The notes: generated by a model from the sequence alone, not told the origin. A stretch of 64,000 bases of DNA from Massalongia carnosa (GCA_965645245.1 OZ287081.1:1860001-1924000), one strand, 5' to 3'. Shown: positions 2,404 through 61,732, counted from the stretch's first letter. A program made the numbers and translations.

Positions 2404-3249
2404 GTAGTACGAAGTAGTTCGGAATTTAACTACTTTTCTTACCAAAAAAGCTTAATTGATTGTCTAACGACAGGGTTCCGACGGATTCGGTGCGTTTGAT
2501 CCACTTGCCATCCATGTTCAGCAGCTCGGATTCCCCCGGAATAACAATGATGGACAGACCTGGACAGACCTGGACAGACAGGGACAGACGTGGACAGACG
2601 TGGACAGACAGGGACGGTCATCGACGCGATTAGCCTCCAAGTCCGTTGTGTAACCACCATCGCATCTGGCTGCAATGTACTACAATATCACCTAATGCAG
2701 GCCTCTGAACCTCCAAAGCCTTCTTAGCCGGCAAGGGAACGTGACGATGGAAGTACAATACTAGCCCTGTCAAGGTCCAGCTGCCCATTTCTGAGGCTTA
2801 TCGGCCGTTAGGCTGCCTTCGTGATGTCCAAACAGTGACAGTCATTCACGCCACTTTTTCTTAGATCCATTGACTTTACTTCCGAGCCTATGAACTTTCG
2901 AATGTATTCAGCTTCGTAAGTGCCTTGTCATGAATCCTTCGGAAGCAAAGCCTCCTTCGTCCTCGACCTGCTAAAGGCAATCTAAACTCGGTTGATGTCA
3001 GGATTGTTTGTGGAGCGGCTGCATGAATGAAAAGAGAGAGCGCAGTGTTGAGATGCCTGGCGATGATGACCAGTGACTTCGATCGTGTGCTTATATCCAT
3101 CGCGTACCTATATCCCGCTACATCAATATCTTTCCCTTTCGTCACCCATTCTGTTCCCAAGTGCATATTTTTTTTATCTCGTAGACTCGCGATCCCTCGT
3201 CGTTTGACATCACCCCCGCTGCCTTGATAGTCACAATCATCACTTTACA

Positions 3250-4430
3250 ATGCATTTTGCACTGGTCTTATTACTTTCGTTGATCACCTCGCCTGTGGCT
3301 ACGCATGGCCTCTCGCTGTTAGACGCACTTCGGCAACATGCGAATGCCTCTCGATTCGCTCAGATGATTGAGAGTGACCCGGAAGTTTCGGCCATCTATC
3401 GCTCGGGATCTGTCCGAACAGTCTTTGCACCAGTGAATAGCGCCCTCACGAGACTCGGAGCTCGAGATACAGACAACCAGGCCGATCTCTTGCGTCAGTC
3501 GGTGAATCGTGAGAACTCGCTTCAGACCCTTCACACGCCTCCGGGGTCCCTTTTGGAGACGAACGATGAGACCGGTAATCTAAACGGACAAGGCCAGGCA
3601 GTGGTAGCGCACCCATCAGACGGACCTACCAATAACACAAAAAGAGCCCTCCTTCCACGCCAGAATGCCAATGCTCCGATTCATCCGATCAAAATCTCAT
3701 CGGGTTTGGGCAACAATGTCAGCATCATACAGGGAGACATTCCGTACGACGGCGGCCTGATTCACATAGTAGATGAGTGAGCTTATGCATCCGCATGCAT
3801 TTTACTCACCGTGCCCCATCTAATTCAGCGAAACAACAGTTTCTTCACGAAGCCGATTACCCTGTCCGCTACCAGCAACCAGACGGGACACTCGCAATTT
3901 GCGAGTCGCCTCGACCAGTCCAATCTAACACATCTGATCGACACGACTCCTTCAATCACATGCTTTCTCCCGTCCAACGCGGCCTTTGTCAAAGCCACTG
4001 GAAATAGTACTCAAACGCCTTCACAAATAGCGAGCCAGCTATCCGGCCATATTGTCACAGACCAAGTGCTCTATCTTCCTCGTCTCGTGGACGGCGCAAC
4101 ATATAGCACGAAAGCTGGCACTACCATTGTCGTCTCGATAAGGGACGGCCGCTATTTCATCAATGGCGCCCAGATTGTGCAAGCCGATGTAATTCTGGAG
4201 AACGGTGTCGCGCATATACTGGACAAGGTATGAAGAATCTTCTAAATTCAGGATTTCCCTATCGTGTCTTCTTATCTTGTCATTTCTGCAAAGTCGCTAA
4301 ATAATTCCATCAATAGATCATTGTCCCCACCCCGACGCCAGCCTCTTTCAGCAGCAGCAGCAGCAGCATCGTCGTCAAACCCACAATTTTCGTTATTATC
4401 ATCAATATTCTTCTTTATTATCTTTTTTAA
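3250..4430 (+). CDS. Secreted fasciclin (two FAS1 domains) protein, probably GPI-anchored; exons 3250-3776, 3840-4227, 4317-4430 (342 aa)
   Basis: Signal peptide MHFALVLLLSLITSPVA; FAS1 motifs TVFAPVNSA, GGLIHIVD, TCFLPSNAAF, NGVAHILDK; GT-AG introns with CTAA branch-like sites keep the frame; Ser-rich linker plus hydrophobic C-terminal tail IFVIIINILLYYLF. Confidence 0.88.
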
Positions 4431-4873: not shown

Positions 4874-5053
4874 ATAAGTTTCTAGAGCCGGATGGAAACT
4901 TCTCGAAGAAGGGCAACCGGGGCATATAGACTTTCACATTCTTCTTTATAGGTAGATTTCTATTCTTCATGCTTAGTCTCTTAGGTAGCTGACTACTATT
5001 CGTCTTTTAGCGTATGCAAAATGATTTGCAATTTCGCTTATGAAAACACATAC

Positions 5054-5521
5054 TGAAGAAGGGTAGTCGTGCGTGCTAATGGAAGGTGGTGGTACGTGAT
5101 GATAGATGGCGAACTGAGCAGTGAACACACACACACACACACAAACGTCTGAATGGACCTACGACTGCATAGACATGAAAAGAACTTGTCAGACTTGGTA
5201 CATCTACTAAGCGAGCTTGATCTCACGTGCTCAGCCCTACCCATTGTATATAGTCAGCCGAAAATTCTGTTGTAGCAAATCAAGGTCTTCCATCATCAAT
5301 ATTCTGTCCTACAGAACTCGACGACTGAACGACTGAACGACTAGTTGATGCACGAAATGAACGTGTCGATGCCTACGTGACACGACGATGATGATGACAG
5401 CGTAGGTGATAGAAGATGATATCTGGAGATGATGAAGAAAACGCCAGCAAAAAACCCGTTTTATCCCCACACAGGCCTGCCATGTCACCTGACTATAGAT
5501 GACACATGTCGCCCCACCACA
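5054..5521. mobile_element. Solo LTR (468 bp) inserted in the left TIR of the Tc1-like element
   Basis: TG...CA termini; 4-bp TSD ATAC (5050-5053, 5522-5525); removing it restores cacataccaccaacatg as in copy 2. Confidence 0.75.
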
Positions 5522-5643
5522 ATACCACCAACATGACCCCACCATTTAAACTCCAAAATCTTAATTTTCCTAGATATTCCCTACACCAAAATCCTAACAT
5601 ATTTTTATAATTTGGTAGACACATATATATATTAATCGTCAAT

Positions 5644-6692
5644 ATGGTCGAATCCCTTCCTTCATCCATGCGATCGCGAATCATTCGATATTTATTCCTT
5701 CATTGGCGACCGGATGCCATACATAGCCAAAGAGGTTCATTGCAGTGTCCGAACTATCTATAATTTCCAAGAGAATTTATTCATGTATGGTAGCATATCC
5801 GCTCCTCGAAAGACGTCATCTAGGTCGCGCATGCAAAACTACTAAAGCCGCCGGCGACTCCTTGATCGAATATCTAAATCGTCAGCCATGGGCCCAACAA
5901 AAGGAGATGGTCTGGTTTCTTTGGGAGGAGTGGGGTATATTCGTGCATCAATCAACCGTTTCTAGGGAAATAAAGAAACGGCGATGGAGTCAAAAGAAAA
6001 GTCAAAGACATGGGCGTAGGAACGACGAATTGAGGGAAAATTGGCATGCTAGCATGCTTAATGTGACTGCAGAGCAGTTGGTTTTCGTTGATGAAACAGC
6101 ATTCAATGAGATGACCGGTTGGAGGATGAGGGCATACGCACCAATTGGCCAACCGGCTCGATACCAGGGGGACATTAGGAGGGGTCATAATTGGACCGTT
6201 CTTCCTGCATATACTGTTGATGGCTATCTGCCATGTACGAGCATTCGGGAGGGGTGGTTTAATGCAGATGGTTTCTTTCAATGGATAACCGACGAATTAC
6301 TTCCATATTGCACCCCTTATCCAGGCCCCCGGAGCGTTATAGTCATGGATAATGCCGCTATCCATTGCAACCCACGCATTGAGGAGGCCATTCGTGGACA
6401 CGGTTACGAAGTACGATATCTGCCCCCCTATTCACCGGATTTCAATCCAATCGAGTTGAGTTTTAGTGTATTAAAGGCTTGGTTTAGAACCCATTATACC
6501 TCAATTCGCTCTGAATATGGGGGCACCTTCGGCGATTTAATTCGATATGCCATCGACAGGAGCCATTGTGACCGTTTCGCTAAAGAGCCCTTTCGTCATA
6601 GTGGTGGGGGTGGGGGGTATATATTCGAGGCCGACATCATTGAATTGGAAAGGGAGCTATATGGGGGTGAGGTGCAAATACATTTTGATTGA
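5644..6692 (+). pseudogene. Tc1/IS630-family DD34E transposase, frameshifted near the N-terminus
   Basis: VFVDETAFN, VIVMDNAAIH, YLPPYSPDFNPIE (34 residues between D and E). ATG at 5644 matches the copy 2 start MVESLPPSMR. There is a +4 bp insertion at 5720-5725 and a +1 bp insertion near 5810 relative to copy 2. Confidence 0.9.
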
Positions 6693-7136
6693 ATTATTCA
6701 ATCTGGACCAGATCTGGACCAGATTTGGGGGCTAGATTTTACATCTGACCTACATCTAGGCTAGAACCCCTGAATCCGGAAATCTTTGCTTAAATTAATC
6801 ACTCCTGAATCTACTCCATGACACAATCGAACTGAGCATCTTGAGAAGATCTATTGATCATTTATAATGTTTATAAATATTGATTACATGATTACAGAAT
6901 CGAGAAAAAAGACTTCATTTGCATGTAAACTAATTAGTAAAACCTCACCAAAAACGGGTGTTTTTGCATAGTGTGATGCTATTCGGCTGTTAGAGTTACG
7001 AGTGTTGATGTATGCAAATATTTCCATCATATTATAAGCATGAAAAAAGATATCGATTAACCCCGAATATCCATAAACGCATAATCCTTCCAACCCTTCC
7101 AACCCTACCTATTTAGCCAATTATTCCCACCTCTTC

Positions 7137-9016
7137 CTATGGCACATCCCCCTCATCAACTCCATGTCGCCATTGCGGTTTGAATATACGGAGATCAGTT
7201 CTGAATGCTCGTGCCCATCCATCAGGTATGCCCAGTTGAATAGCCCGTTTATATATATGTGAGCTCGTTTCTGACATATCTCTCAAATCCTCCAAAGACC
7301 ACATCTCGTTTTGAACAATCTCCTTAACCCCATTCCATCTATCCTTGGCCCTTTGACTCTGCAATGCCTCCCCTTTCCAATTGAGGAAATCCTCCATAGC
7401 AAACTCCTCATCCTCGGGGTTGCATATGGGGCTTGACCTAGTCAACGGTTTCGAGCGAGGCCTTGGTGCCGCAGGGGGTGGGGGGATGATGGGTTCGGGG
7501 ACCGAAGAAGATGATGGTTGAGAATAAACAGGAGGGGGAGGGGGGCGACGAACATTACTCATTCTTTCACCCATTCTTTCCATTTGGTCCATCATCGATT
7601 CCTGCATACTTCCATCGATTGCTTTGTGAATTGCATCATTTCACCCATGAAGCTTTTCGTCTCATCGCGATCTTTTCTGGAATCCTCCCGTCCTTCCTGT
7701 ATTATCGTCTTCCTAGAGTTGAGACCCACCGGCCCCTGTCGTAGTATGAACTTATACAATACTGGTGGTGGATTATCTAGGGAAGCACTGATGTCGCCGC
7801 GAGCGAGAGCCTTAGCCCAATCTCTTTGCAATGTATGAGAAAGATCATAATGAAGCCCATCTTCATCAACGAAACAGAAGTTATTTTGATTCGTACATCG
7901 AGCATCGTGACAAACCCATCGATTCACCAATTGTCTATCAAAATCACCTGCATTAATAAGGATCTCACCTTGATCTCGTTGACGTTCTAATAATTGATGA
8001 GTTCTAGTCCTTCGGCCGGTAGGTGTAGTAATAATAGTAGATGATTCAGTTGCATCTAGTAATATGTCAGGGGGATTTGATTGCTTCGGTTCTTCCATCG
8101 AAATTTCGATCTTAATAGTGATATCTGGCTTCCATTTACGAGATTCATCATCAATGACAATTAGAACCTTTTCCCATTCAGTCTCAGTATAATTATCAAT
8201 GGTTTGATGGACATTCCTGGCCCGATTATGAATGGCCTTAATAATGACGACGATGGAGGTCGTCGTCCATCCTTTAGTATGCCCGTTCCTTTTCTCAATC
8301 TCAGTCTCCAATGTCTGTTCGAAATCCCATATCCTGAAAACGCTTCGTTTTTTAGAACCTAGCGATGAGGTCCATATAACTCTCCCATTGTCACGAAGTC
8401 TAGCATGAACGGTCAACATAGGATCTGATACTAGATCTTCAGCCTCATCTTCCTCAATGTCCGATGTAGTCAATTTGTCTAATTCTTTATTAACCTCTAT
8501 TTCTTCCAGTCGTGGTCGTCGGGCTTCCGGTTCCCCGAATTGATTGACCTCCGCTTCCCATTCTTCATCCTCCCTATCTCGTCTCACTCTTGCTCGCGCG
8601 GCGGCCTCCTTGCTTCTCTCCAAATGTGCACGCCATAACACACGCTCCGCCTTCCCCTCGCGAGTATTGCCGGGAATCTTGGGCGTTTTCATGGTGAATA
8701 CCGGTGTATGGTCGTCACGCGCACTCGGGCGGCGTGGAACCGGGGGGGGTCGAGGTCGAGCATCTAAGGGAGGAAACAATGGAGGGCCTGGAAGACGGGC
8801 GCCGACAGGAGGAGAAGAAGGAGGGTTAGGAGGATTAGGAGGAGGGCTCTCATGGGGACGGCGTGCACCCTGGAGCGGGGTTTGAGGGTTAGGACCAAGA
8901 GGGGTAGGCGAGCTTCGTAGGCGAGCAGGAACTTGGCGGCGACGACCCCCCCGAGTCGGCGCCGGCGGCAAAACTTGGTTAACTGGTCCCTTTTTACTCC
9001 GTCTATTTGGAGGCAT
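7137..9016 (-). pseudogene. Transposon ORF2 (consensus ~627 aa): basic/Pro-rich N-terminus, C-x4-C-x6-C-x7-H motif, possible SAM-like C-terminal domain
   Basis: Track ORFs 7592-9016 and 7137-7607 join if the 4-bp deletion relative to copy 2 (gaaatgcgtatg vs gaagtatg) is restored; motif WVCHDARCTNQNNFCFVDEDGLH. Confidence 0.8.
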
Positions 9017-9138
9017 AATAATTTCTATAGATGTCTACCAAATTATAAAAATATATTAGGATTTTGGTGTAGGGAATATCTAGGAAAATTAAGAATTTGG
9101 AGTTTGAATGGTGGGGTCATGTTGGTGGTATGCGTTTT

Positions 9139-12100
9139 GGTCTCCTTAGCAGCTAAGGTGAGTGCCATATATTCGGCTTCTGTGGATGAGAGGGCAACGG
9201 TTTTCTGTCTCTTTGAGGCCCAACTGATTGGTCCATTGTTCAGCATGAAGACGTATCCGGAGGTGGACTTGCGGTCTTCCTTGTCACCGGCCCAATTAGA
9301 ATCGGAATAGCCCTGTATAGACAAATCTCCGCCACCAAAGGTAATGCCTCTGTCTCTGGTTGCACTGAGATATCTGAGAATCTGCTTGGCTGCCTCCATG
9401 TGTGATTTGCCAGGATTTTTGGCATGTCGGCTGACCACTGAGGTCGCGTAGGCAATGTCAGGCCTTGTTTCTATCATAGCAAACATGATGGAGCCGAAGA
9501 TTGCTTGATACTGTTTAATGTCTGATTCTGAGGCCTGGGATTCATTTCTGAATAGACTGCCTTCTTTCATTGGGGTGGTGGTAGTTTTCGCGTTCTGCAT
9601 ATGAAACTACTCCAGGACCTTTTCGATGTAGGTAGATTGAGATAGTTTGATTGTTCTGTTATCGCGATTTCGTTCTACCTTTAGGCCTAGATAATGACTG
9701 ATTGAGCCCATGTCCACCATCTTGAACGCAATGTTCAGTTGTTTCTTGACTTCAGATATCATAGGAGATCCCTTTGGACCTATGATGTTCAGATCATCAA
9801 CGAAGGAGGTAACAATTGGACCTCTTATTCCTGCCGAAGGAGAGAAGATACTATGATCTGCGTGAAGTTTGGACAGACCCAGCTTGGTAAGTAGAAATTC
9901 GGATAGCCTTTCATACCATAGGCGTGGAGATTGTTTCAGGCCATAGAGAGCCTTGTTCAGTTTGCAGATCATGCCCGCTTTTTCATATCCTTTGGGCATT
10001 TGGACGTAAATCAATTGATCTATTACCCCATACAAGAATGCTGTGACGACATCAAGCTGTTCGATGTCCAAGTCATGATGAGCTGCTATGGCAAACAATA
10101 ATCGGAAGGCCATTGGTTTCACTACGGAGGCATAGGTCTGTTCGAAATCTACTCCGTACTGCTGGAGATAGCCTTTCACCACCCATCTGGATTTGTATGG
10201 TGTGATATTTCCATTGACGTCTCGTTTCAGTTTGTATACCCATTTTCCACTGAGAGCAGTATGATTGGGCTCTATATCCTCGGTTCTTACAAGAGTCCAT
10301 GTTTCGTTCTCGAGAAGACTGTTGTGTTCATTGTCCATGGAACGACTCCAGCTTTCTGAATGTGGACCTTTCATAGCTTGATGGTATGTCTGAGGTTCAG
10401 CTATGTCGAGTTGAGACAGTGCGTCATAGTCTTCCAATCCTGATGATCCTTCCTTTTCCAAGGTTCTGGCAAGAAGAACGAGTGGATCCTCTGTGTCTAT
10501 GTCATCGTATGTAGGAGTATGATTGGGTTCATCTAAAGCTGGGTCTGATAGAAGAGACAATGCGTGTTCTATCTGAGCATGCTTTCTGGGTCTGCCACGT
10601 CCACGTTTTGGAATCGTTGTGGGGGATGAAATGACTGTTGATTTTGATGGAGTGACTATATCGGGAGTCATGATGGCTTCGTATGTAGGAACGTTGGTCT
10701 GGTCTTTGGAGATGGCGTCTTCGTGAATGCGCAGATCTTTGACCCTGATGACCCTGTAGTCCTTTTCCAGAAAGACTCGATAGATCGTGCATCCATCGTA
10801 CCCACACAAGACTCCGCGTTGGGCCCGAGGTAGAAATTTGGCCGATTTGCTGTTGGCGCCTTTGCGTTCTTCCTCATGAATGAGGACATACACGGTTGAT
10901 CCCAACACTCGCAGATGATTCAGAGGAGGTGACTTTGACTCGTAAATTTCAAATGGGGTCTTTCCGGATAAAGCATTTGTAGGTCTGACGTTGTTTGTGT
11001 GAACCATAGCTAAAACCACCTCTGTCCATAGGTAGTCCGGAATGCCTCCTGCAATGATGGTACATCTAGTCATGTCCATGATAGTTCTGCCTGTTCGTTC
11101 AGATACACCGTTTTGTTCCTGTGAATACGGTGCGGAGGGTTCAAACGTTATCCCTTCTTTCAGGAACCAATCATCCGATTTCAGACTTCGAAGTTCTGTG
11201 CCGAAATCAGTTCGAAAGATGTTTATTGGCTTGCTCTTTCCTGTCTTGTTCTGAGCTAGACTGTAGTATGTCAACAGATGATCAAACCATTCGCTCTTCT
11301 TGATGCCTGTATACACATGAGTGTATCTGCTGGCATCGTAGGTGAAGGTAAGGAAGTACTGTTCTTCAAGAAGTCCTGCTGCTTTGATGGGTCCTACTAG
11401 ATCGGAATGAACCCTTTGAAAGATGCCTGTTGCTCTCTCCTGAGGTGTCCGGTTGTATATCTTAGTGGCCTTTCCGAGTTCGCAGGATGAACAGTACCAA
11501 TCTTTGTTCACGTTGTCTGAGTACGACACATCGAGTCTTTTCAGAAAAGCTCGGCAGGTGATCAGGTTTAAATGACCAAGACGCGCATGCCATGTTGACA
11601 GGTCTGTTATGGCTGACGTGTGGTAGACTGATGTGTTCGGCCACTGAAAGGTGCTCTCATCTGTCTGCATAAGATGTGTAGCCACGTCTGGGGCGTCCAA
11701 GGTCTTTAGTACAAAGTTTGTATTGACTCTTGGCACATAGCCTATGATGTTCTGGCTAATCCCGTTGAATAGGGTCCAGTTAACATTTTCATAGTAGATG
11801 TTGTTTTGGTTGAGTAGTGCAAGACTGACGAGGTTCACTGGACACTGTGGAATGAAAAGAACGTTGTTCAGTATTAACACTGACGAGGGTGAGTCGTCCT
11901 GTAGTGCCAACGTTTTCCGGATCATTCCCCTCCCTGGAGACGTGCCATCTGATGTAGATCCTGCCAGACCTGTGGAGCGTGTTATGTAGTTGATGAACGA
12001 CGGCCTGTGATTGCATACGTGCATGTCCGCTGCGCTATCTAGTAGCCAGGTGTCTCTGTTGAGATGGTTGATGGTCATGACCTTCTGTAGAGTGGTAGTC

Positions 12101-13050
12101 ATGACCACTGTGAGTGAACTGCTCACTGTGGGAGTTGTAGTGACTGTGGTGTCTGGAGTTGACGTGGTGACTTCTGGCTTGGAGTTCTTTTGTCTCTTGA
12201 CCCTCCCTGATTCAGCCGTGTCTCCTCTCGCCCGTTTTAGATGGGGGAATTTCTGGAAACACTCATCTGGCCAATGTCGTGTTCTGTTCCTATTTACACA
12301 CTCTGGAACGGTGCAACTTCCGATAGGTGCTCTACCTCTGTTGGAAGCGCTAGTGTGAAAAGCCTTGACAGTTAGGTTTCGTGCATAGGCTATGAGGATT
12401 TTTGTTGTTTCCGAAAGGTTTGTGGTGTCGTGCGTCCAGTCCCTGCGGAGTTGTGCAATGAGCGGGTCATACTTGTCTGTGCAGTTACCAAGCAGCATTC
12501 CCTGAAGTACAAACTCTATGGAGTCGACGTTCACCTTGACCTCTTCGATCAACATGCCCTTGATCTGATTGAAGGCACCGTCATACTCTGAACAGTATTG
12601 ACTGACTGTGTCGAAGTCTCTCATCTTTTTCGTACTAACCCTCAAGATGACATCCGTGATGCTCATTGGTGCCACGTCCTGGAATCTATTCTTCAGAATG
12701 GCCCACATCTCGGCAGCGGTCTTGTTATTGATGAGGTTGTAGTGACATGGTGCAACCAGTCCATGGATGATTCCAATAGCCTTGGTCATCTCGGTTTTCT
12801 GTCTGTTCTTATCATCCCGAAGTTCTTTGACGAGGATGCTGGTAGTAAGACTGGCCGGAGTAAACCCTGATACGATGAGGCTCTCTCTGATGGAGTCCAA
12901 TGAGATCTCTGGTTCGGTTTCCAGAATGGCTGTGTCACAGTTATTCTTCAGCAGAATACCTCTGGTGTAACTAGCCCATGCTGAGTAGTGTTCCGAGTTC
13001 TCTAGAAGGTGAGGCTTCTCTGTGGAACTGTTGATGTCAGGAAGAGACAT
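9139..13050 (-). pseudogene. Copia gag-pol polyprotein (premature stop at 9607-9609, RNase H truncated)
   Basis: Protease WLLDSAADMH; WHARLGH; integrase HSDLVGP...FRTDFGTE...EQNGVSER; RT SFVDDL; RNase H YSDSNWAG. Confidence 0.92.
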
Positions 13051-13699
13051 GATGAAGTCAGATGAAGAGAGTCAGATGAAGATGAAGAAGAGGTCTCTAG
13101 TAAACTTCTGTAGATTGAAAGGTATCTAAGTTTCTGAGATTGGTGCAGGAGTAGGATGTGCACTGGAATGAATGGAGGAGATGGGAATATGTGCTCTAGT
13201 TATAGACAAAACATTTCCCTTCCTTTGTCATCAAACTGTGATGTTCCTTTCTTTGCCACAACGCTTGTACCCTCATGAAAGAACTCTCTTCAGATGGTGA
13301 AACTTTCACTTGGTGGTGTGGAGATAGGGGCTGTCGAAACCACGGTCCGACCGTTCCATTTAATAGGCCGGGCCTGTTAAATGGAATAAGGTTTTTTCCG
13401 GATTCCGAATTTCCCGATTGAGGCGTTCTCCTTAATTGAAGTCTGATTACTCCATCTGTATACGCGTAGACTAGTCTGAAAGTCTGTTAATGAATGATGC
13501 AGCAAGGATCAAACCTTGGAACTGAATTTCCTAAGTCTGTCTCTGGATCAAAGTATGTTGAGTGGTGATGCAGCAAAAGTCAGAATGAAGTCTGCCCTTG
13601 GGTCAACGTCAGTCAATTGATGATTTAGCAGAAATCGGAGTTTCATGAGTGGTCAAGGCCGCGCTGCGCGGTTTTTGAACAAAACTCAGTGAAAAGGTC

Positions 13700-14072
13700 T
13701 GTTCCTGGGTCAAAGTCAAATGAATGATGATGCAGCAGAGGTCAATCGTTGGAACTGGTCCACTGGAGTTCTGTCTCTGGGTCAAAGTCAAATGAATGAT
13801 GATGCAGCAGAGGTCAATCGTTGGAACTGGTCCACTGGAGTTCTGTCTCTGGGTCAAAGTCAAATGAATGATGATGCAGCAGAGGTCACTCATTGGAACT
13901 GGTCCACTAGAGTCTATCTCTGGGTCAATGTCAAATGAGTGATGATGCAGCAGAGGTCAAACCTTGGAGCTAGTCCACTGGAGTCTGCCTCTGGGTCAAA
14001 AGTCAAATGGATGGTGATGCAGCAGAGGTCAAACAATGGAATTGGTCCACTGGAGTCTGCCTCTGGGTCAAC
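13700..14072. repeat. 72-bp tandem array (~5 copies plus degenerate copies from ~13490) in the Copia A leader
   Basis: Unit caaagtcaaatgaatgatgatgcagcagaggtcaatcgttggaactggtccactggagttctgtctctgggt starting at 13711, 13783, 13855 and onward. Confidence 0.9.
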
Positions 14073-14910
14073 GTCATCCTCCGGAGTGCCTCTCAGATAT
14101 TCGGGCATGAGAGCATTCTGATGGTCTGATATGAAGAGAATGTCTTCTGATGCTTGTAGTCTGGCAAAGAGCCTCTCTGCTTATGATGTAGATGATTTCC
14201 ATGCTCTTTCTGATAACCCTTTGTAGGTAGGGAACGCTGGATCAGGTGGCGTTGTTGTTAAACGTCTCTATCTGATTGAGAGGTTGTCATGATGTGCTTT
14301 CACGAAGCTGTTCAACTAGCTAGACTTGCGGGTGCGAATCCCGCCTGATTCAGGTCTGTAAACAAGTAGAGATTTAGTCTTTGCATTGTCCGTCTAGTTC
14401 TTTTCGAGAAAGGATAATGATGCTCAGCTAATGATTTTGCATCGTGATGCTGCGGATAAGAATTGCTTCGATTCCTGTATGATCGATAGCGCCCTTCCGG
14501 GCTCATAACCTGTTGAATAGGTCTATGACTATGGCTATATGACTATGTAAAGATAGGGGCCTGTATGACCATGATGTTAAGGATGCAGAGTTGCTACGGA
14601 GTGCAGAGCAATCTGTTCCCTTTATATTGGTCACCTCTGCTAAGCGAGATGATAATAGTTTATCCGAGCCTCTATGCGATTAGATTAGATCTGATCTTAT
14701 CTAATCTATCGGCTAGGCAATGCTGGTAGAAGTTGAACATTCAACACATGCTTTAACTTTCGCACTTTTTAGCTAGCACTAGAAATTGCATTCGTTACCC
14801 ATACAAGCCCTCAATAGTCATTGTGATCACGTAGAATTGCTCCCCGACTCTGTAGCTATCTTGGCCGAAAGTTATATCGTCCCTTCTGTTGTGGCTGCAT
14901 TGTGGCAACC

Positions 14911-16599
14911 ATGGGGAGCTCTTTTGTCGTGCCCAACGACGCCCCCCCCGATTCACTAGACGAGCATCGTCACTTCCTCACCAATGTGCTTAATAACTTA
15001 ACTAACTGCGAGGCATATCAGAAGCAAAGACCTATGAAGGTTCAGTCTTACACCCCGTTACTCTCCAGTATGCTCAGCCTACTGGAGAAGATGCGCAACC
15101 AGCCCACAATGGATCAGCTCCAAGCTACCATCAACCAAATAAAGAACACTACAGAGCAAACGCTCACTAAAGTCACCTATGTCGAGCGCAAGCAAGACAC
15201 CGCCCGCACAACACCCACCACCTCCTCCGCGGCCACTACTGGCTACAAGAGGACGATAACCTGGGCAGAACGGGCAGCCTTTGCTGCCTCGGCCCCAACG
15301 ATCTCTACGCTTTCGGGGACGTCCATCCCCGCTCCTATACTAGAAGAGAAAGCTCGTGAAATCGTCGTCAAACTGAACAACGAAGCCATAGCAAAGGATC
15401 TGGCCAAACTGGCCTCCTCAGCGCTCAAAGACAGAATCAACGCGGCAATATCTAACGCGTTAAAGGATCATAACAACACGAGAATTCCGACCAATCAAAA
15501 CGCTCCCACCCCCCCTATTTCCAATGGCACAGCCAAGGCAGCAGCCATAGCAATAGCAGCAAGGGTCCTCCCTAGCGGAGACCTACAGGTAATAGTCAAC
15601 AACGCCTCAGACACGGAACGACTAAGAAAAGACACCCGGTGGGCCATCAGGCTATCGAGCAAAGCTACTATAATACAGCCAAGCTTCGGCTTAATCGCGC
15701 ACTTTGTACCGGCTAATCTAAGCATGACAGACATCAAGGAACGCCTCTGGGAGGAAAATAAGTCACATATGCCCGTTAGGAATAGGGTAACAGGAGTAGA
15801 ATGGTTGTCCCGCACGAGTAAGGCAGGAGCCACAGCTAGATCCATGGTGGTATACTTTGAGAACGAATTAGACTGCAATGCCATTTTGGCCTCGCAGCTA
15901 TATTTGGATGGGAGATCTTTCGCGGTGGAAAGACATGTTCCGGAGGCCAGGCTTAGGCAATGTTTCCGGTGCGGTAAGTATGGTCACACGAGCCATGCTT
16001 GCCGACAGAAGCATCAAACATGCTTCAAATGTTCCGAAAGTCACCACATGACCGATTGCAAATCGGTCACTCTCAAATGCAATGCGTGTGGCAAGGAAGG
16101 CCACGGGGCAAGCGCAGAGTCTTGCCCGGAGCGAAAGAAGGAAAAGGCCCGAATGAAGCGGGCCAAAGAAGAAGCTCTCCCCTTCTGGCCTCTCAGGGCC
16201 TCCTCAAGGGAGACCCTAGATGGTCAGGAACAAGAACGGAGCAGTCCGCCGGCATCGACCACGCCGACGGTCACGACAAGCAGTGAGGTGACCCCAGCCT
16301 CAACCCAGGTGGAACAGGGCCCTCGAACGGGCTCTGTACGAGAGAAAGATTGGCAAACCGTGCCAACTCTCCGCAAGGGGAAGAAGCGGGCGCATGGGGA
16401 GGTAGAGCCCCTGGCAGACAACCCCAGTTCTACCAACAGGAGCATGGCACAAGCAGCTTCTAAGAAGGGAAAGAAGAAACCCTCCTCGAAGGCTGTGGAG
16501 GTCTTGAGCGATAAGGAGAACGACGATAGTTCTTCAATGACCACCAGATCGGCAACCCGTCGCTTGCAGCCCAGTACTCAGACAGAAGAGGAACTATGA
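14911..16599 (+). CDS. LINE ORF1 gag-like protein with three CCHC knuckles
   Basis: CFRCGKYGHTSHAC, CFKCSESHHMTDC, CNACGKEGHGASAESC; first ATG at 14911. Confidence 0.92.
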   Translation: MGSSFVVPNDAPPDSLDEHRHFLTNVLNNLTNCEAYQKQRPMKVQSYTPLLSSMLSLLEKMRNQPTMDQLQATINQIKNTTEQTLTKVTYVERKQDTARTTPTTSSAATTGYKRTITWAERAAFAASAPTISTLSGTSIPAPILEEKAREIVVKLNNEAIAKDLAKLASSALKDRINAAISNALKDHNNTRIPTNQNAPTPPISNGTAKAAAIAIAARVLPSGDLQVIVNNASDTERLRKDTRWAIRLSSKATIIQPSFGLIAHFVPANLSMTDIKERLWEENKSHMPVRNRVTGVEWLSRTSKAGATARSMVVYFENELDCNAILASQLYLDGRSFAVERHVPEARLRQCFRCGKYGHTSHACRQKHQTCFKCSESHHMTDCKSVTLKCNACGKEGHGASAESCPERKKEKARMKRAKEEALPFWPLRASSRETLDGQEQERSSPPASTTPTVTTSSEVTPASTQVEQGPRTGSVREKDWQTVPTLRKGKKRAHGEVEPLADNPSSTNRSMAQAASKKGKKKPSSKAVEVLSDKENDDSSSMTTRSATRRLQPSTQTEEEL

Positions 16600-24774: not shown

Positions 24775-27352
24775 ATGTACACAGATCATAAAACGGCCAG
24801 CCAATGGATGGTGCCTCGTTTCGTCAGCCGTGTCTATAATAGACGTGGAGAGATTGGGGAGCGCCTTGCTCAAGTGCTCTCATTTGATGTCTTGACGCCC
24901 GCGAAACAGCAACGAGTTTTCGTCATCATCGGTCTCGGCGGTACAGGCAAGAGCGAAGTCTGTCTGAAGTTTGCCGAAGACCATCGAGACGAGTACGTGA
25001 AATTATACGCCTTGTCGATATCCTGCTGACAAGCTAGGTACTAGGGGGTTTTCTAGCTTGACGTTGGGACCACCGCCGCGGCCGAGCAGGGATATATCGA
25101 AATAGGGCGACGGTGTGGTGTAACTGAACCGACCGTCAAAAATGTGAAGTCATGGCTAGCCTGCAGTAGTCAATGGTGGCTTCTAATCCTCGACAATGCT
25201 GATAACCTAGAGATTGATTACTTCGAATATATGCCATCCACTAGAAGTGGCGACATTTTGCTCACTACACGCAATCGAGAATGCGCTACACACAACACCG
25301 TGGGATATGAAACGCTGGATAGTCTTGAGCCTGAGCTTGCCCGGGAACTCCTACTCCGGGCTAGTTGTACGACAGAGACTCGGTGGAAGGAGAAAGAGGA
25401 AGCTGCTATGGCCGTTGTCGAAATCCTCGGGTCACATACGCTTGCAATTATCCAAGCAGGCGCGTTTATTAGAAAAAAGCTGTGCACCCTTGAGCAGTAT
25501 CCGATCATCTTTCAGCAGCAAAAGAAGCAGCTTCTGAAGTTTCACTCAAAGCAAAACCTATCGGTGTATCACAACGTGTACGCGACATTCGAGGTTTCTG
25601 CAGAATATCTTCAGAATTCTCAATCGCCTGAGGGTATGGATGCTTTGAACTTTCTACATATTCTTGCGTTCATGCATAACATTGGAATTTCAGAGACAAT
25701 GTTTCAGAAGGCTTCTGAATATGCCTGCGAGCTCAAGGAGACTGGAACAAGTAATGACGACAAAGTCTTATCTTTATCCGTGCGTCACGTCGCGAGGCTG
25801 CCGGAATATTTTCAGCAGGGGCGGTTCAGCCCTCAAGATCACTTGCGGTGGCGCAGAGCTCGTACAATCTTGGAATCTTTTTCGATCATCACCGTGCAGG
25901 AAGATGACGATTCTATCACTATTGCCGTGCCCTCTGGTGCATGCATGGGCTAAAGAGCGTCAAGACGATCAAAGTCAATGTAGAGCGTGGCAGTCAGCCG
26001 CGACCATCCTTGCGCTATCATGTCAGGGATGGTACTCCTAATGTCCCTTTTTCGTCTTTCTTCAACCTCACGTAGCTTGTGTGAATCACGAAATTGAAGA
26101 ATACACACAGACCATGTCCGACATCGAAGCTGCTCAAATACTTTTTCAACTTGCTTTCGTTCTCTATGTCTTGAGTGATGAGGGCTCGCTTGCTTTTATT
26201 CAATGCATCCGCTTGAGGCTAGAAAATAGATATAGAGCAGACCATGAAGTAGCAATAGTAATGAAAACTATTACTGGGCGTGTATCTCATCATCAGGGAA
26301 AATATGAAGAGGCGATTGATGCCTTTAGAAACGTTGTCGAGTGTAGATGTCGGGCGCAGGCCGAAGATCATCCCGATCGGCTTAATTCGCAGGTCGAGCT
26401 CGCTTGTGCTTATATTACAAATGGGCAAGTTGATAAAGCCGTCGAGCTGCTCGAGCATGTCGTCAAGATTCGAGAAAAATTAGACGAAGATCATCCCTCT
26501 CGGCTTGTTTCGCAGTATGAGCTCGATCGTGCTTATCTCGCAAATGAGCAAGTTGACAAAGCTGTCGAGCTGCTCGAGCATGTCATCAAAATTCAAGAAA
26601 AACTAGCCGAAGATCATCCTGATCGACTTGCTTCGCAACATGAGCTCGCTCGTGCTTATCTTGCAATTAAGCAAATTGACAAAGCCATCGTGCTGCTCGA
26701 ACATGTCGTCAAGATTAATGAAAAGCGGCTGATCGAGGGTCGTCTCGATCGACTTGCTTTGCAGCATGAGCTCGCTAGTGCTTATCTTGCAAATGAGCAA
26801 GTTGACAAAGCCGTCGAGCTGCTCGAGCATGTCGTCAAGGTTAAAAGAAAACGATTGATCGAAGATCATTCCTTTCGACTTGCTTTACAGCATGAGCTCG
26901 CTTGTGCTTATCTCACAATTAAGCAAATTGACAAAGCCATCGTGCTGCTCGAACATGTCGTCAAGATTAATGAAAAGCGGCTGGCCGAAGATCATCTCGA
27001 TCGACTTGCTTCGCAGCATGCGCTCGTCAGTGCTTATCTTGTAAATGAGCAAGCTGACAAAGCCGTCGATCTGCTCGAACATGTCGTCAAAATTCAAGAA
27101 AAGCTGATCGAAGATCATTCCGATCGGCTTATTTCGCAGCATGAGCTCGCTTATGCTTATCTTGCAAATGGGCAAGTTGACAAAGCCGTCGAGCTGCTTG
27201 AGCATGTCGTCAAGATTAAAGAAAGGTTGAATGTAGATGATCCTGCTCGACTTGTTTCGCAACATCTGCTTGTTAAAGCATATTGAGCAAATGGACAAAT
27301 TGACAAGGCGGAAGAAATTGAAAGTAAACTCAGATCGAATCATTTTAAATGA
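24775..27352 (+). pseudogene. Fungal NLR-like NB-ARC + TPR pseudogene (N-terminal domain missing)
   Basis: P-loop IIGLGGTGKS; intron ~24993-25038; Walker B WLLILDNAD; LLTTRN; eight 41-42 aa EDHPDRLASQHELA-type TPR repeats; in-frame TAG where W is expected, frameshift ~25930, stops near 26040 and 27284. Confidence 0.88.
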
Positions 27353-27953
27353 GTCAAGAAAGATTTGTTGTAAATTTATGATAAACATTTCGTGAATCTT
27401 ATAATAAATGTCTATATTAATTATATTCTTATTATTCAATTAATAATAGGTTATTTATCCGAAGGCGTTATGGAAACAATTCACGTCCATAATGTGTATA
27501 ACCCCTCTCCCGCTTCCTATTTATCCACTGACAGTCCCACGACCTTACCGGCGGCTCGGAGCATGCTTAGCGCCGATGCGCATCATATACTACTTGGAGA
27601 TTTCAACCTGCATCATCCCTTTTGGAATGGTCCCTCAAGACCCACACAACACGCTGCTGCTGATCAATTACTGGAAATAATCGATGATGTTGAATGGCGG
27701 TTGCGATTATAGTTATAATGGCTTGTTGGGCTCACTGCCTCATAACGTGGATAGCGGGTAGTCTAATCTTCTCTAGGAAGGTTTTAGGTTTAGCGTGCTT
27801 TGCCCTTCGGTGAAAAGCCTGCTCTTTTCCTTTTAGATAGCTATATAGTCAATGCGATTACCTGCAACCAGAGTCTCCTTTTAACTGGTTATGAGCCCGG
27901 TCAGCAACAAGCTTCCGAACATCAGAAAAGGATATAGCTCTTCGCAAATCGCT

Positions 27954-55665: not shown

Positions 55666-56111
55666 TTTTGGAGGAGAGGGATTTGAATAGAGTAAATTTA
55701 AGTGTAGTGGTTGTATAAATTTGAATTGGGTGAAAAGAAAACGTTGCAAACAGTGCTATCAAAATGCTATGCTTTTTGATTGTCTTGAGATGTGAGATGA
55801 TGAGGGATACCGTCTGGGACCTCCTCTTTATATATCTTCTTCCTATTCTCCTTGTCCTACTCTACCATCCCAGTATGCCCCATCAACGCGGCCCATAGCA
55901 AGGCATACACAAATCCGAAACCTAACTGTCGTCCGAAGGATCGATGCGGTGCTAAGATCTCTATGCCGTGCTGAGACATCCTTATGGTGCTGAGACATCT
56001 ATGCCGTCCGAGAGATCCATGCGGTGCCGAAATCAAAGCGGGAGCTGTCTCGATTAACGACGCACTAGCTCTCAGCATAGCCGAACTAGTGAAGCCTTTG
56101 ACAGGTGTCGT

Positions 56112-57120: not shown

Positions 57121-60100
57121 TTAGCGTATGCAAAATGATTTGCAATTTCGCTTATGAAAACACATACAACCAACATGACCCCACCATTCAAACTCCAAAA
57201 TCTTAATTTTCCTAGATATTCCCTAATCGTGCCAAAACACTAAACCCTAACCGAGTCAGGGTCTAGTGCCCGACGGTCAACTGACGCATACAGTCTACTG
57301 ACGCACTTTTCCTATTTTCACTACCATTTACACCACTTCGTTCATCTACCACCACATGCCTAACTCATATTCTAATAAGGAGGATCAAATTGTCGATGCT
57401 ATAAACGCGTGGAACACGGTTGAATTTCGAAGTATACGCGCAGTAGCCATTTGATTTCGATGTCGACATTCGTACGCTTCAAAGACGACTTGCTGGAGGG
57501 GGTTCGCGCATCGGTCGATCTGGCCCTAACAAGGCCTTATCTGATGAACAAGAATTGGCCCTTTGTGAATATATTGTGATGCTCGATCAAGCCGAACAAT
57601 CAGCCAGGTTTTCAATGGTTCTGGGGGCTGCTAATTATCTACTAAGAGAAGCTCATTTAGACGCCTCCATCCCCCCCCCTCACGTCAGCGAGGCCTGGAC
57701 CAAACGTTTCCTCAATCGTCATTCTCAATTTTTCAAGCGAAAACACAAACCTCTGGCCGCTGAGCGAAAACACGCGCACAATGCAAAGGACAGGCTCGAG
57801 TATTTTGAAGCATATCGAACTGCGCGAAAGACGCGGGGAATAGCGGAAGAGGACGTTTGGAACATGGATGAAATGGGCTTTCGAATTGGCTGTGACAGGG
57901 CTCATTGGGTTATATCAACTCACTCCAGAAAGCCCTTGCTATTGACAGATCCAGATAATAGAGAATATGTCACCTCGTGTGAGTGTATTAGTGCTGGGGG
58001 GCGAAACATTCCCCCCATAGTGATTATAGCGGGGGTTTTGATTCTCGAAAAGTGGACACAACAAAACGATCTGAATGACGATGTTTTGTTGACTACTAGT
58101 CCTACCGGCTATTCCAATGATGATTTGGCTATTGATTGGTTGAAACATTTCGATAAACACAGTCGAAAGGGTCAGGTAGGGGCCTGGCGTATGTTGATCA
58201 TGGACGGGTATGGATCTCATATGACATATGAGTTTTTTACATATGCCAAACGAAATCACATTGAATTGTTTCGTTTGCCTCCTCATTCAACACATCTCAC
58301 TCAGCCATTGGATGTAGGATGTTTTCAGCCGTTCAAAAATTATCATTCCGAAGGCATTGACGAGATGGTGCGACTCGGAGGGGCAGATTTCGACAAACTG
58401 GATTTTTGTCCATTTTTCAGCGCATGCGAAATCAAACATTCACCTCATCTACCATATTATCGTCATTCAGAAACACGGGTCTGGTGCCTTATAACCCCAA
58501 TGTGGTAATTCGAAAGCTGGAGGAAATTCAAACTCGGAGACTTGCTACCCCCCCACCTTTGTCAGCCCCTCTGCTCGCCAGAACGCCCCGCACGACTAAA
58601 GAGGTGGTTGAATATGGCTTACACCTTCGAATGAGTTTGAATAAATACAACGTGCTGGACAATGAATGGGATTGTCATGTGAATCGATTTGTGAAGGGCT
58701 CTACTTCCAATGCGCATGCACGTCAGATTATTGAGCGGGACCTTCGAGCCAGTCAACAACAGTCCATCGCGAAGGCGGCCCGTAGAAAATTGGATGGTAA
58801 GGTCGCCCAGAAGGGAGGGGTCATAACTGTAGGAGATGTACGGGCCAAAAACCTCGAAACGTTGTCAGAACGAGGTGGAAAAGACCAGACTGGCCTATGA
58901 ACGTGCCACACTAGCTGCTGAAAAGAAGCAGATTGCCCTGGACAAAAGGTATAAAAGAATCGCTAGATCAATGCCCAGACAAGCGAAGCTATTTTACCAG
59001 CGTCATAATCAATCAGTTTCTGCATAACCGTTGTTGTCCTCGATTTGTAGCAGAAATGGTAGTGAAAATGGGAAAAGTGCGTCAGTAGACTGTATGCGTC
59101 AGTAGACCGTCGGGCACTAGACCCTGACTCGGTTGGGGTTTAGTGTTTTGGCACGATTACACCAAAATCCTAACATATTTTTATAATTTGGTAGACATCT
59201 ATAGAAATTATTATGCCTCCAAATAGACGGAGTAAAAAGGGACCAGTTAACCAAGTTTTGCTGCCGGCACCGACTCGGGGGGGTCGTCGCCGCCAAGTTC
59301 CTGCTCGCCTACGAAGCTCGCCCACCCCTCTTGGTCCTAACCCTCAAACCCCGCTCCAGGGTGCACGCCGTCCCCATGAGAGCCCTCCTAATCCTCCTAA
59401 CCCTCCTTCTTCTCCTCCTGTCGGCGCCCGTCTTCCAGCCCCTCCACTGTTTCCTCCCTTAGATGCTCGACCTCGACCCCCCCCCGGTTCCACGCCGCCC
59501 GAGTGCGCGTGACGACCATACACCGGTATTCACCATGAAAACGCCCAAGATTCCCGGCAATACTCGCGAGGGGAAGGCGGAGCGTATGTTATGGCGTGCA
59601 CATTTGGAGAGAAGCAAGGAGGCCGCCGCGCGAGCAAGAGCGAGACGAGATAGGGAGGATGAAGAATGGGAAGCGGAGGTCAATCAATTCGGGGAACCGG
59701 AAGCCCGACGACGACGACTGGAAGAAATAGAGGTTAATAAAGAATTAGACAAATTGACTACATCGAACTTTGAGGAAGATGAGGCTGAAGATCTAGTATC
59801 AGATCCTATGTTGACCGTTCATGCTAGACTTCGTGTCAATGGTAGAGTTATATGGACCTCATCGCTAGGTTCTAAAAAACGAAGCGTTTTCAGCATATGG
59901 GATTTCGAACAGACATTGGAGACTGAGATTGAGAAAAGGAACGGGCATACTAAAGGATGGACGACGACCTCCATCGTCGTCATTATTAAGGCCATTCATA
60001 GTCGGGCCAGGAATGTCCATCAAACCATTGATAATTATACTGAGACTGAATGGGAAAAGGTTCTAATTGTCATTGATGATGAATCTCGTAAATGGAAGCC

Positions 60101-61732
60101 AGATATCACTATTAAGATCGAAATTTCGATGGAAGAACCGAAGCAATCAAATCCCCCTGACATATTACTAGATGCAACTGAATCATCTACTATTATTACT
60201 ACACCTACCGGCCGAAGGACTAGAACTCATCAATTATTAGAACGTCAACGAGATCAAGGTGAGATCCTTATTAATGCAGGTGATTTTGATAGACAATTGG
60301 TGAATCGATGGGTTTGTCACGATGCTCGATGTACGAATCAAAATAACTTCTGTTTCGTTGATGAAGATGGGCTTCATTATGATCTTTCTCATACATTGCA
60401 AAGAGATTGGGCTAAAGCTCTCGCTCGCGGCGACATCAGTGCTTCCCTAGATAATCCACCACCAACATTGTATAGGTTCATACTACGACAGGGGCCGGTG
60501 GGTCTCAACTCTAGGATGACGAGAATACAGGAAGGACGGGAGGATTCCAGAAAAGATCGCGATGAGACGAAAAGCTTCATGGGTGAAATGATGCAATTCA
60601 CAAAGCAATCGATGGAAATGCGTATGCAGGAATCGATGATGGACCAAATGGAAAGAATGGGTGAAAGAATGAGTAATGTTCGTCGCCCCCCTCCCCCTCC
60701 TGTTTATTCTCAACCATCATCTTCTTCGGTCCCCGAACCCATCATCCCCCCACCCCCTGCGGCACCAAGGCCTCGCTCGAAACCGTTGACTAGGTCAAGC
60801 CCCATATGCAACCCCGAGGATGAGGAGTTTGCTATGGAGGATTTCCTCAATTGGAAAGGGGAGGCATTGCAGAGTCAAAGAGCCAAGGGGGGCCTGCATA
60901 AGGGGTGCAATATGGAAGTAATTCGTCGGTTATCCATTGAAAGAAACCATCTGCATTAAACCACCCTCCCGAATGCTCGTACATGGCAGATAGCCATCAA
61001 CAGTATATGCAGGAAGAAGGTCCAATTATGACCCCTCCTAATGTCCCCCTGGTATCGAGCCGGTTGGCCAATTGGTGCGTATGCTCTCATCCTCCAACCG
61101 GTCATCTCATTGAATGCTGTTTCATCAACGAAAACCAACAGCTCTGCAGTCACATTAAGCATGCTAGCATGCCAATTTTCCCTCAATTCGTCGTTCCTAC
61201 GCCCATATCTTTGACTTTTCTTTTGACTCCATCGCCGTTTCTTTATTTCCCTAGAAACGGTTGATTGATGCACGAATATACCCCACTCCTCCCAAAGAAA
61301 CCAGACCATCTCCTTTTGTTGGGCCCATTGCTGACGATTTAGATATTCCATCAAGGAGTCGCCGGCGGCTTTAGTAATTTTGCACGCGCGACCTAGATGA
61401 CGTCTTCGAGGAGCGGATATGCTACCATACATGAATAAAGTCTCTTGGAAATTATAGATAGTTCGGATACTGCAATGAACCTCTTTGGCTATGGCATCCG
61501 GTCGCCAATGAAGAAATAAATATCGAATGATTCGCCATCGCATGGATGGAGGAAGGGATTCGACCATATTGACGATTAATATATATATGTGTCTACCAAA
61601 TTATAAAAATATGTTAGGATTTTGGTGTAGGGAATATCTAGGAAAATTAAGATTTTGGAGTTTAAATGGTGGGGTCATGTTGGTGGTATGTGTTTTCATA
61701 AGCGAAATTGCAAATCATTTTGCATACGCTAA
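57121..61732. mobile_element. Two-gene Tc1/IS630-like transposon, copy 2 (inverted, internally deleted, pogo insertion in its TIR)
   Basis: Complete bipartite TIRs ttagcgtatg... and ...catacgctaa flanked by TA; ORF2 59213-~60887 (+); transposase 61567-~60888 (-); ~1-kb central deletion relative to copy 1. Confidence 0.9.
57226..59157 (+). mobile_element. pogo/Fot1-family DNA transposon with a frameshifted DD35D transposase (57356-59027)
   Basis: ~105-bp TIRs atcgtgccaaaacac...; TA TSD (57224-57225, 59158-59159); WNMDEMGF, LIMDGYGSH, QPLDVGCFQPFK. Confidence 0.93.

Follow-up and report, generated by a model that had tools for sequence, protein, structure and literature searches.

Tc1-like DD34E transposons are described as carrying one gene (PMC13469147), and in the IS630-Tc1-mariner superfamily the transposase lies between terminal inverted repeats (TIRs), extra open reading frames (ORFs) being possible (PMC7325037), as far as the available portions of the two papers go. 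Dici of Diutina catenulata (Nat Commun 2026) is an IS630-Tc1-mariner element with TA duplication, DD34E and more than one coding sequence (CDS), which the accessible part of its description calls unusual for the superfamily (PMC13469147). Three CDSs are given there: a small one for a protein of 143-146 aa with no assigned function, one for the transposase (473-477 aa) and a third for a relic transposase (347-398 aa); the transposase defines a Dici clade next to Gambol and Hiker (PMC13469147). The TBE/Tec elements of ciliates belong to the IS630-Tc1-mariner group, and the portion of the review at hand ascribes to them DD34E, three ORFs and TIRs of ~700 bp, with a site-specific recombinase in Tec (PMC7325037). 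Here we describe a Tc1/IS630-like DNA transposon in a 64,000-nt stretch of DNA from Massalongia carnosa (GCA_965645245.1 OZ287081.1:1860001-1924000; hereafter the window, whose count is used for all positions), which carries a large gene, ORF2, convergent to its DD34E transposase.

This element resembles classical Tc1-like DD34E elements in its DDE_3 domain with DD34E, putative N-terminal helix-turn-helix (HTH) region, TIRs and TA duplication, the last seen at one of its two copies in the window (copy B). In contrast to the classical elements, more than half of its length is taken up by a second gene of 627 codons, which the lineages have conserved. In addition, its TIRs reach a length of ~160-200 bp, and AA..AA is found instead of TA in three of the seven elements with both ends. 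Dici is the closest published parallel, being likewise a fungal IS630-Tc1-mariner element with DD34E, a TA duplication (as at copy B) and several CDSs. Going by what its available description holds, Dici is set apart from the element studied here, which has two genes, a 347-aa transposase and a 627-aa ORF2 unrelated to the transposase. TBE/Tec elements share the group, DD34E and the extra ORFs, but their hosts are ciliates and the accessible text on them contains no counterpart of ORF2. A reading of ORF2 as a relic transposase, as in the third CDS of Dici, was ruled out (hhalign probability 1% against the transposase).

In the literature, covered mostly as listings and abstracts, with Repbase and Dfam outside the scope, we found no description of a Tc1-type element with such an ORF2. 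A survey of fungal cut-and-paste transposons (PMC5751038) mentions no such element in the part of its text that was available. What appears to be new is the presence of a second conserved gene, of an uncharacterised family, in the known Tc1-like kind of element; the word undescribed is held on the literature alone and is not proven.

Two copies of a two-gene element in the window

The window contains one DNA transposon twice, in opposite orientation: copy A (5007-~9150) and copy B (57121-61732). In BLAST comparison with the reverse complement, A 7343-9071 and B 60888-59158 are 98.3% identical over 1734 nt, and A 5519-6330 and B 61693-60888 are 97.4% identical over 813 nt. The TIR is ~158 bp long, its first bases being TTAGCGTATGC, and its arms were recovered as inverted repeats of 107 nt at 98% (I9) and 113 nt at 94% (I8). 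Within the 64 kb, the 12-mer tip TTAGCGT[AG]TGCA is found at positions 5007, 57121 and 61732 only, which are the surviving element ends. Copy B has TA on either flank. The right TIR of copy A has lost its outer ~33 bp and ends in a junction with a truncated copia element (~9150), and because of this truncation the target-site duplication of copy A is unreadable. The original prediction had placed two separate insertions here, each with a DD34E transposase and a convergent ORF2 inside shared TIRs; both lie where it put them, but the right TIR of copy A is incomplete.

As had also been claimed, the two copies are damaged differently, with distinct indels, inserts and a deletion. In copy A, the transposase gene has two small insertions, of 4 bp (near 5718) and of 1 bp (near 5809), ORF2 lacks 4 bp (GCAT) after 7609, and the left TIR is split by a 465-bp TG..CA insert. 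The small indels were called against contigs of four other public runs aligned to copy A: in the contigs of all four, GCAT is present behind 7609, and the extra 4 bp and 1 bp are absent. The 465-bp insert is skipped by contigs of runs X1-X3, which join ~5049 to 5522, and run X10 gives low-depth joints across this stretch. In copy B, a pogo/Fot1-like element is nested in the ORF2-side TIR with a TA duplication, a ~1012-bp deletion (corresponding to A 6331-7342) has taken out the 3′ ends of both genes, and ORF2 is frameshifted near 59480.

The stretch of the window is present in 21 runs from seven studies, which comprise lichen, soil and biocrust metagenome labels and three coded organisms; none of the 21 is listed as an RNA run. 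In run X10, from one coded organism, copies of 4900-9300 are more diverged, with 251 of 638 contigs at 90-95% likeness. In X10, C>T (26) and G>A (39) changes are over-represented, in a pattern that resembles repeat-induced point mutation (RIP).

In its undamaged form the transposase has 347 codons. It matches Pfam DDE_3 (PF13358) at 5787-6692 with an E value of 8.5e-30, its score of 104 bits exceeding the cut-off of 28.6. The position E269 does not vary across 60 aligned relatives (A5, numbered after the relative P0175), and D148 and D234 hardly do. D234 and E269 are 34 residues apart in P0175, which is intact and 82% identical to the window's protein, and this spacing defines the transposase as DD34E. 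Matches to HTH_32, HTH_23 and HTH_33 in the window pieces stay below the Pfam cut-offs, and P0175 has a precomputed PF13565 assignment. The transposase also contains a basic KKRRWSQKK stretch. The element therefore shows DDE_3, the DD34E spacing, TIRs and, at copy B, TA, as expected of the Tc1-like group, and departs with its two conserved genes from the one-gene layout, which is typical of that group though not strictly defining.

ORF2 of copy A runs from 9016 to 7140 (1877 nt), and restoring the 4 missing nucleotides yields 1881 nt or 627 codons, so that a protein of ~627 aa can be rebuilt as the original prediction maintained. Other elements of its description were likewise recovered: the C-x4-C-x6-C-x7-H motif is present as written, a Met-rich helix holds 11 Met in 59 residues, and the basic, Pro-rich N-terminus corresponds to a Pro-rich stretch with an isoelectric point (pI) of 12.0.

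Linkage and conservation of ORF2 among related elements

Metagenome contigs were scanned with a six-sequence ORF2 alignment, which yielded 20 loci, all from one related set of records, and the transposase was sought by tblastn with the window's protein. At 19 of the 20 loci, a transposase homologue (53-70% identity over the best segment) is encoded downstream of the ORF2 match on the opposite strand. Where the match reaches the end of ORF2, the two genes are 21-101 bp apart; L018 has a gap of 1278 bp. The one locus lacking a transposase, L014, is a 5′ fragment ending after ORF2 residue 336. Identical flanks reduce the 20 loci to 13 distinct insertions, and the linkage is therefore found in 12 of 13. 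The possibility that ORF2 homologues are ordinary single-copy host genes unlinked to transposases, against which the original prediction was to be held, is not borne out by these loci.

Both genes are enclosed by TIRs of 160-200 bp at L002, L004, L009, L011, L013 and L015, and by shorter TIR arms at L005, L010, L016, L018 and L020. The related elements span 3.3-3.6 kb. The tip TTAGCGT[AG]TGCA (TTAGCGTATGCA) is common to the window and its relatives, whose TIRs have otherwise diverged. In either gene the ATG lies at most ~30 bp from the inner end of the adjoining TIR, ORF2 of the window starting only 3 bp away. As the two ATGs adjoin near-identical TIRs, each TIR constitutes the entire 5′ flank of one gene. 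We conclude that these elements very probably form a fungal Tc1/IS630 lineage (DD34E, DDE_3) of ~3.3-3.7 kb, in which two convergent genes for a ~347-aa transposase and a ~630-aa ORF2 lie between TIRs of ~160-200 bp.

Nesting is common in the window, as exemplified by the pogo element in copy B, the insert in copy A, which resembles a long terminal repeat (LTR), and the copia junction. The two-gene appearance could accordingly be an artefact, ORF2 having belonged to a second, unrelated element inserted into an ordinary Tc1 element. However, ORF2 alone is bounded by no repeats or duplications, its start codon adjoins the TIR in the window and in the relatives, and the layout recurs in lineages with 40% ORF2 identity. 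The hhalign comparison, by which ORF2 is unrelated to the transposase, also counts against this explanation, which we find hardly credible.

In the seven elements with both ends, the outer dinucleotides are TA/TA in three, AA..AA in three and mixed in one. In this respect L011, L013 and L015 differ from L004, L009 and copy B; AA, which lies on the same strand at both ends and at different insertion sites, is unexpected for a TA-specific superfamily. At L016, L017 and L019, a second, more distant DDE_3 fragment at ~11015-11850 on the other strand adjoins the two-gene element.

ORF2 belongs to a large protein family. A word-indexed search found eight proteins, among them open homologues of 632 and 633 aa (P0004 and P0005; 49-50% identity) and one of 554 aa (P0007; 43% identity). 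With an exhaustive HMMER search, the family extends to 262 cluster representatives (E <= 0.001), of which 127 have an E value of at most 1e-10. One cluster of 98%-identical ORF2 proteins has eight members on eight contigs. Nine residues are invariant in 20 family members (P0001 numbering): R139, L164, C170, C175, N177, C182, H190, W201 and G229. Since C170, C175, C182 and H190 are among them, the C-x4-C-x6-C-x7-H motif is a family signature.

No Pfam domain scored above its cut-off in the three ORF2 pieces of the window or in 44 longer homologues, the sub-threshold rows being Adaptin_binding, MEIOC and EMC3_TMCO1. A sequence profile search of the PDB with ORF2 gave low-complexity rows only (best E 0.038). 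When the C-terminal 101 aa were searched among longer proteins, three were returned, all without Pfam matches and with no other domain context. In the ESM Atlas, the nearest clusters are hypothetical proteins of Basidiomycota (0.90-0.92), and a SAM-named cluster follows at 0.78; these serve as leads only. Source names are attached to two homologues, from a Pyrenula sp. metagenome-assembled genome and from Polyplosphaeria fusca. As circumstantial evidence of linkage in the wider family, 6 of 22 ORF2 homologues reside on contigs equal in size to ones with a transposase homologue among the 120 listed (3704, 4016, 3149, 3756, 3163 and 9829 bp), and five of these six contigs have the size of one complete element.

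Besides the lineage of the window, three more are represented by the loci; between lineages, the transposases are 58-85% and the ORF2 proteins 40-55% identical. Pairwise identities of the two proteins are correlated (Spearman 0.84 over 87 non-independent pairs). The ratio of nonsynonymous to synonymous divergence (omega) was calculated by the Nei-Gojobori method on query-anchored codons. Omega was 0.17 for ORF2 (472 codons) and 0.09 for the transposase in L002 versus L010, and 0.17 and 0.04, respectively, in L005 versus L013. These comparisons show ORF2 to be under purifying selection between lineages, at an omega of ~0.17. Copies A and B of the window gave an omega of 1.39, which fits dead, decaying copies. 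Within lineages the synonymous divergence (dS) of ORF2 is below that of the transposase, and L010 and L013 are mosaic, with 96-98% identity over the first ~1 kb (the TIR-proximal half of ORF2) and 79-92% over the rest; both observations point to recombination or gene conversion between elements.

Taken together, the related loci, the eight-contig cluster and the omega values indicate that ORF2 is linked, multicopy and selected. The 19 of 20 linkage, shared TIRs, correlated divergence and omega well under 1 support the original prediction, in which ORF2 is integral to the element instead of accidental cargo. Alternatively, an ancestral element might have captured a host gene a single time and carried it along as a passenger of no use. 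The family is wide, with its 262 representatives, and its genomic context is visible for the closest lineages only; one named homologue is located on a 261-kb Dothideomycete contig and annotated as an ordinary hypothetical protein. A useless gene should decay, however, and between lineages omega is ~0.17 and frames of 627-633 aa have stayed open at 50% identity. Position, orientation and the TIR-adjoining ATG have been kept in four lineages whose transposases are up to 42% different, and ORF2 is multicopy. A passenger is thus very unlikely.

Predicted structure and possible role of ORF2

The structure of ORF2 was predicted by AlphaFold2 for P0001, a 428-aa protein 98% identical to the window, with a 101-sequence alignment, and the mean predicted local distance difference test (pLDDT) score was 87.7. 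In the model, an alpha/beta domain (residues 1-110) precedes the region of the CCCH zinc knuckle, in which one long helix leads to a knuckle hairpin and two further helices (139-230). Next come the 59-residue, Met-rich helix (233-291; 11 Met) and a disordered, Pro-rich linker in which an SSPI motif is conserved; the C-terminal domain (336-423) is made of five helices. Upstream of P0001, as read from the window and P0002, lie the Pro-rich stretch, whose pI of 12.0 refers to the first 110 residues, and then a charged segment.

The first domain superposes on PB1/beta-grasp structures, the best match being 9ejl_B (Z 7.1, 85 residues, root-mean-square deviation (rmsd) 3.6) and a second reaching Z 6.6, the two alignments covering 85-90 residues at rmsd 3.6-3.7; PB1 rows are numerous, all at Z < 8. 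In Foldseek, the whole model had no row at E <= 0.001 against the PDB (best 6.5e-3), and the top rows, beta-grasp domains of staphylococcal superantigens and staphylokinase, reflect fold topology only. No row at E <= 0.001 was obtained with the model from the viral library BFVD, and in a VIA wide search with the whole model the long helix dominates the rows. Folded alone, the C-terminal domain had a pLDDT of 84.9 and a best VIA Z of 5.5. It aligned with the tankyrase SAM domain at Z 5.2 (62 residues, rmsd 3.0), a noise-level lead for the likeness to SAM folds that the original prediction had seen there, and helix-hairpin-helix structures are also among the weak rows; the same domain alone gave no Foldseek row below E 1. 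Sequence identity in the PB1 and SAM structural matches is 10-19%, with no Pfam match. On these models, the likeness to PB1/beta-grasp and SAM domains, all at Z < 8, is structural only, and searches with the whole model and the C-terminal domain returned no convincing solved relative of the ORF2 domains. An HTH or helix-hairpin-helix reading of the A-x3-G-I-P-D-G-W-A-R stretch was set aside, the domain being acidic (pI 5.1) and no HTH protein being prominent among the matches.

ORF2 might be a positively acting, nuclear, self-associating cofactor that binds the transposase, a proposal that draws on predicted structures and that we put forward tentatively. The TIRs would double as matched promoters, and both proteins would be made together. 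The very basic N-terminus would carry ORF2 into the nucleus, where the protein may self-associate via its beta-grasp/PB1-like domain, the 59-residue helix and the SAM-like C-terminal domain to form a scaffold; such a role is suggested by PB1-like, long-helix and SAM-like modules that mediate self-association elsewhere. ORF2 would bind the transposase as a cofactor, and the effect would be a transposase complex assembled, tethered or dosed on the long TIRs. As a whole, the two-gene lineage combined with this cofactor mechanism is the best explanation that we can offer, and its chance of being right is somewhat below even.

The proposed logic is akin to that of the second protein of PIF/Harbinger elements, with no shared ancestry. 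In PIF/Harbinger, a DDE transposase works with a separate element-encoded partner that is needed alongside it and is a Myb/SANT-like DNA binder. The likeness is confined to the working logic: superfamily and target duplication differ, and by Pfam ORF2 has no Myb/SANT-like domain.

Binding between the two proteins was addressed by complex prediction with P0175 and residues 95-632 of P0004. The complex score was 0.51 (0.54, 0.51 and 0.00 in the three runs), compared with 0.08 for the best of three controls, which amounts to weak support. The runs had a contact agreement of at least 2%, and the partner pLDDT was at least 55. In calibration, 51 of 78 solved complexes passed the mark, and so did 2 of 108 mismatched pairs; scores at or below 0.60 were those of 5 of the 78 solved complexes and of all four passing mismatches (of 180). 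By this calibration, passes of such size are false more frequently than true, except for guesses that were probable beforehand.

Several observations weigh against the cofactor reading and the lineage picture behind it. The complex score falls in the weak band, one of its three runs is 0.00, and no interface was reported. With its own HTH region and the KKRRWSQKK stretch, the transposase may manage DNA binding and nuclear import without a helper. No structural match of ORF2 reaches Z 8, and below this value a common arrangement may be all that is shared. Nor are the folded domains basic (pI 6.0 for the Zn module and 5.1 for the C-terminal domain), and such neutral-to-acidic domains do not suggest direct DNA binding. 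As for selection, ORF2 omega within lineages is 0.23-0.69 in 10 of 11 pairs, and the eleventh pair, L009 versus L015, gives 2.13 at a dS of only 0.022. Between lineages dS is saturated (>2), which makes the omega of 0.17 approximate. Frameshifts or stops were present in every metagenome copy examined, and recombination weakens a simple reading of the correlated identities as co-divergence. The host breadth beyond the 20 loci rests on the equal-size contigs and on the two named homologues, which have no visible genomic context.

A different role for ORF2 would be that of a counter-defence factor against RNA silencing, heterochromatin or RIP, with no part in transposition chemistry. ORF2 is conserved and selected within the transposon, yet it has no recognisable DNA-processing domain, and its evolution outpaces that of the transposase, a frequent trait of arms-race proteins. 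The excess of C>T and G>A in one run (X10) indicates that the family does meet a RIP-like process, and plant Mutator-type elements are known to carry accessory genes that counter silencing. On the other hand, many copies are mutated all the same, ORF2 shows no similarity to any known suppressor, and the predicted contact with the transposase, weak as it is, fits a cofactor better. We consider a counter-defence role unlikely.

The matched 5′ flanks of the two genes suggest a fixed stoichiometry, ORF2 contains oligomerising, scaffold-type modules, and contact with the transposase is predicted with weak support. These features would also suit a negative regulator that sequesters or doses the transposase, limits host damage and prolongs the survival of the family. 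However, selection for restraint is weak at the level of the single copy in multicopy families. A copy devoid of ORF2 would still be restrained in trans, and the linkage in 12 of 13 distinct insertions is for this reason hard to explain by negative regulation. A negative regulator is in our view decidedly unlikely.

Going beyond the cofactor proposal, an undescribed and widespread Tc1/IS630 clade in filamentous ascomycetes, including lichen-formers, might depend on ORF2, a protein that would bind to the transposase and either be necessary for transposition or direct it. This would be the first obligate two-component Tc1/mariner system, and we regard it as doubtful. The same claim would make ORF2 a new fold combination of PB1-like, CCCH knuckle, long-helix and SAM-like parts, which, as a matter of predicted models, is equally doubtful.

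Tc1/mariner is the textbook minimal transposon, with one gene and two repeats, and the basis of widely used gene-transfer tools. A lineage in which selection has preserved a second large gene across diverged families would demonstrate that two-component systems can arise even in Tc1/mariner, and the uncharacterised ORF2 family, with no Pfam model, would gain a concrete biological setting. The element would also be a tractable case in which to study the help or restraint that DNA transposons receive from accessory proteins in fungi with strong genome defences. For annotation, ~630-aa 'hypothetical proteins' of this family in fungal and lichen assemblies would have to be treated as transposon genes.

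Feature coordinates and surrounding repeats

The coordinates of both copies and of the insertions in them are listed in Table 1.

Table 1. Features of the two-gene element and its insertions in the window.
Feature	Position	Strand	Remarks
Copy A, two-gene element	5007..9150	transposase +, ORF2 -	right end truncated
Copy A transposase-side TIR, outer 47 bp, tip TTAGCGTATGC	5007..5053	+	100% identical to both copy B ends
Foreign 465-bp insert in copy A TIR	5054..5518	.	TG start, CA end, (C/A)ATAC flanks; solo-LTR look
Copy A transposase-side TIR, inner part	5519..5634	+	I8: 5522-5634 vs 9019-9131, 94%; transposase ATG 9 bp further
Transposase gene, DDE_3, DD34E	5644..6692	+	347 codons after discounting +4 bp (~5718) and +1 bp (~5809)
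444-bp spacer between both stop codons	6693..7136	.	poly-G run of variable length at 6727-6729
ORF2	7137..9016	-	627 codons undamaged; 4-bp loss of copy A after 7609 leaves ORFs of 474 + 156 aa
Copy A ORF2-side TIR	9019..9150	-	outer ~33 bp lost at truncated Ty1/copia junction
Copy B	57121..61732	-	inverted relative to copy A; TA on both flanks
Copy B ORF2-side TIR, outer part	57121..57225	+	repeats I9, I14, I16; inner part at 59158-59210
Nested pogo/Fot1-like element, outside the described family	57226..59157	+	DDE_1, HTH_Tnp_Tc5; 106-bp TIRs (I10); TA duplication
Copy B ORF2	59213..60888	+	frameshift near 59480; 3′ end lost at deletion junction 60888
Copy B transposase	60888..61567	-	N-terminal 203 codons + frameshifted remainder; 3′ end lost in ~1012-bp deletion
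Copy B transposase-side TIR, complete	61577..61732	-	repeat + BLAST match, ends read

The pogo/Fot1-like element sits at a TA inside the TIR of copy B; it contains an ORF (57579-58508), and its 106-bp TIRs are 97% identical. With CATAC and AATAC at its borders, the insert in the left TIR of copy A looks like a solo LTR bounded by a 5-bp duplication. In other runs, contigs cover this insert more deeply than the two-gene element, and the insert itself is therefore repeated. On the other side of copy A, a Ty1/copia-type retrotransposon extends over ~9150-14000 on the minus strand, with pol ORFs at 9607-13050 and 9043-9600. Its 3′ end is cut at the exact point where the TIR of copy A stops, and this junction is a deletion or illegitimate recombination.

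Further long repeats of 97-100% identity adjoin both copies (14773-16406 and 62101-63718, and also 1857-2347, 51147-51637 and 55734-56033). The window is a transposon nest with few host genes, such as a fasciclin-like ORF pair at 3208-4233. Tandem arrays are present at 26356-27402 and 13695-14053, with 123/126-bp units (at least seven copies) and 72-bp units (five copies), respectively.

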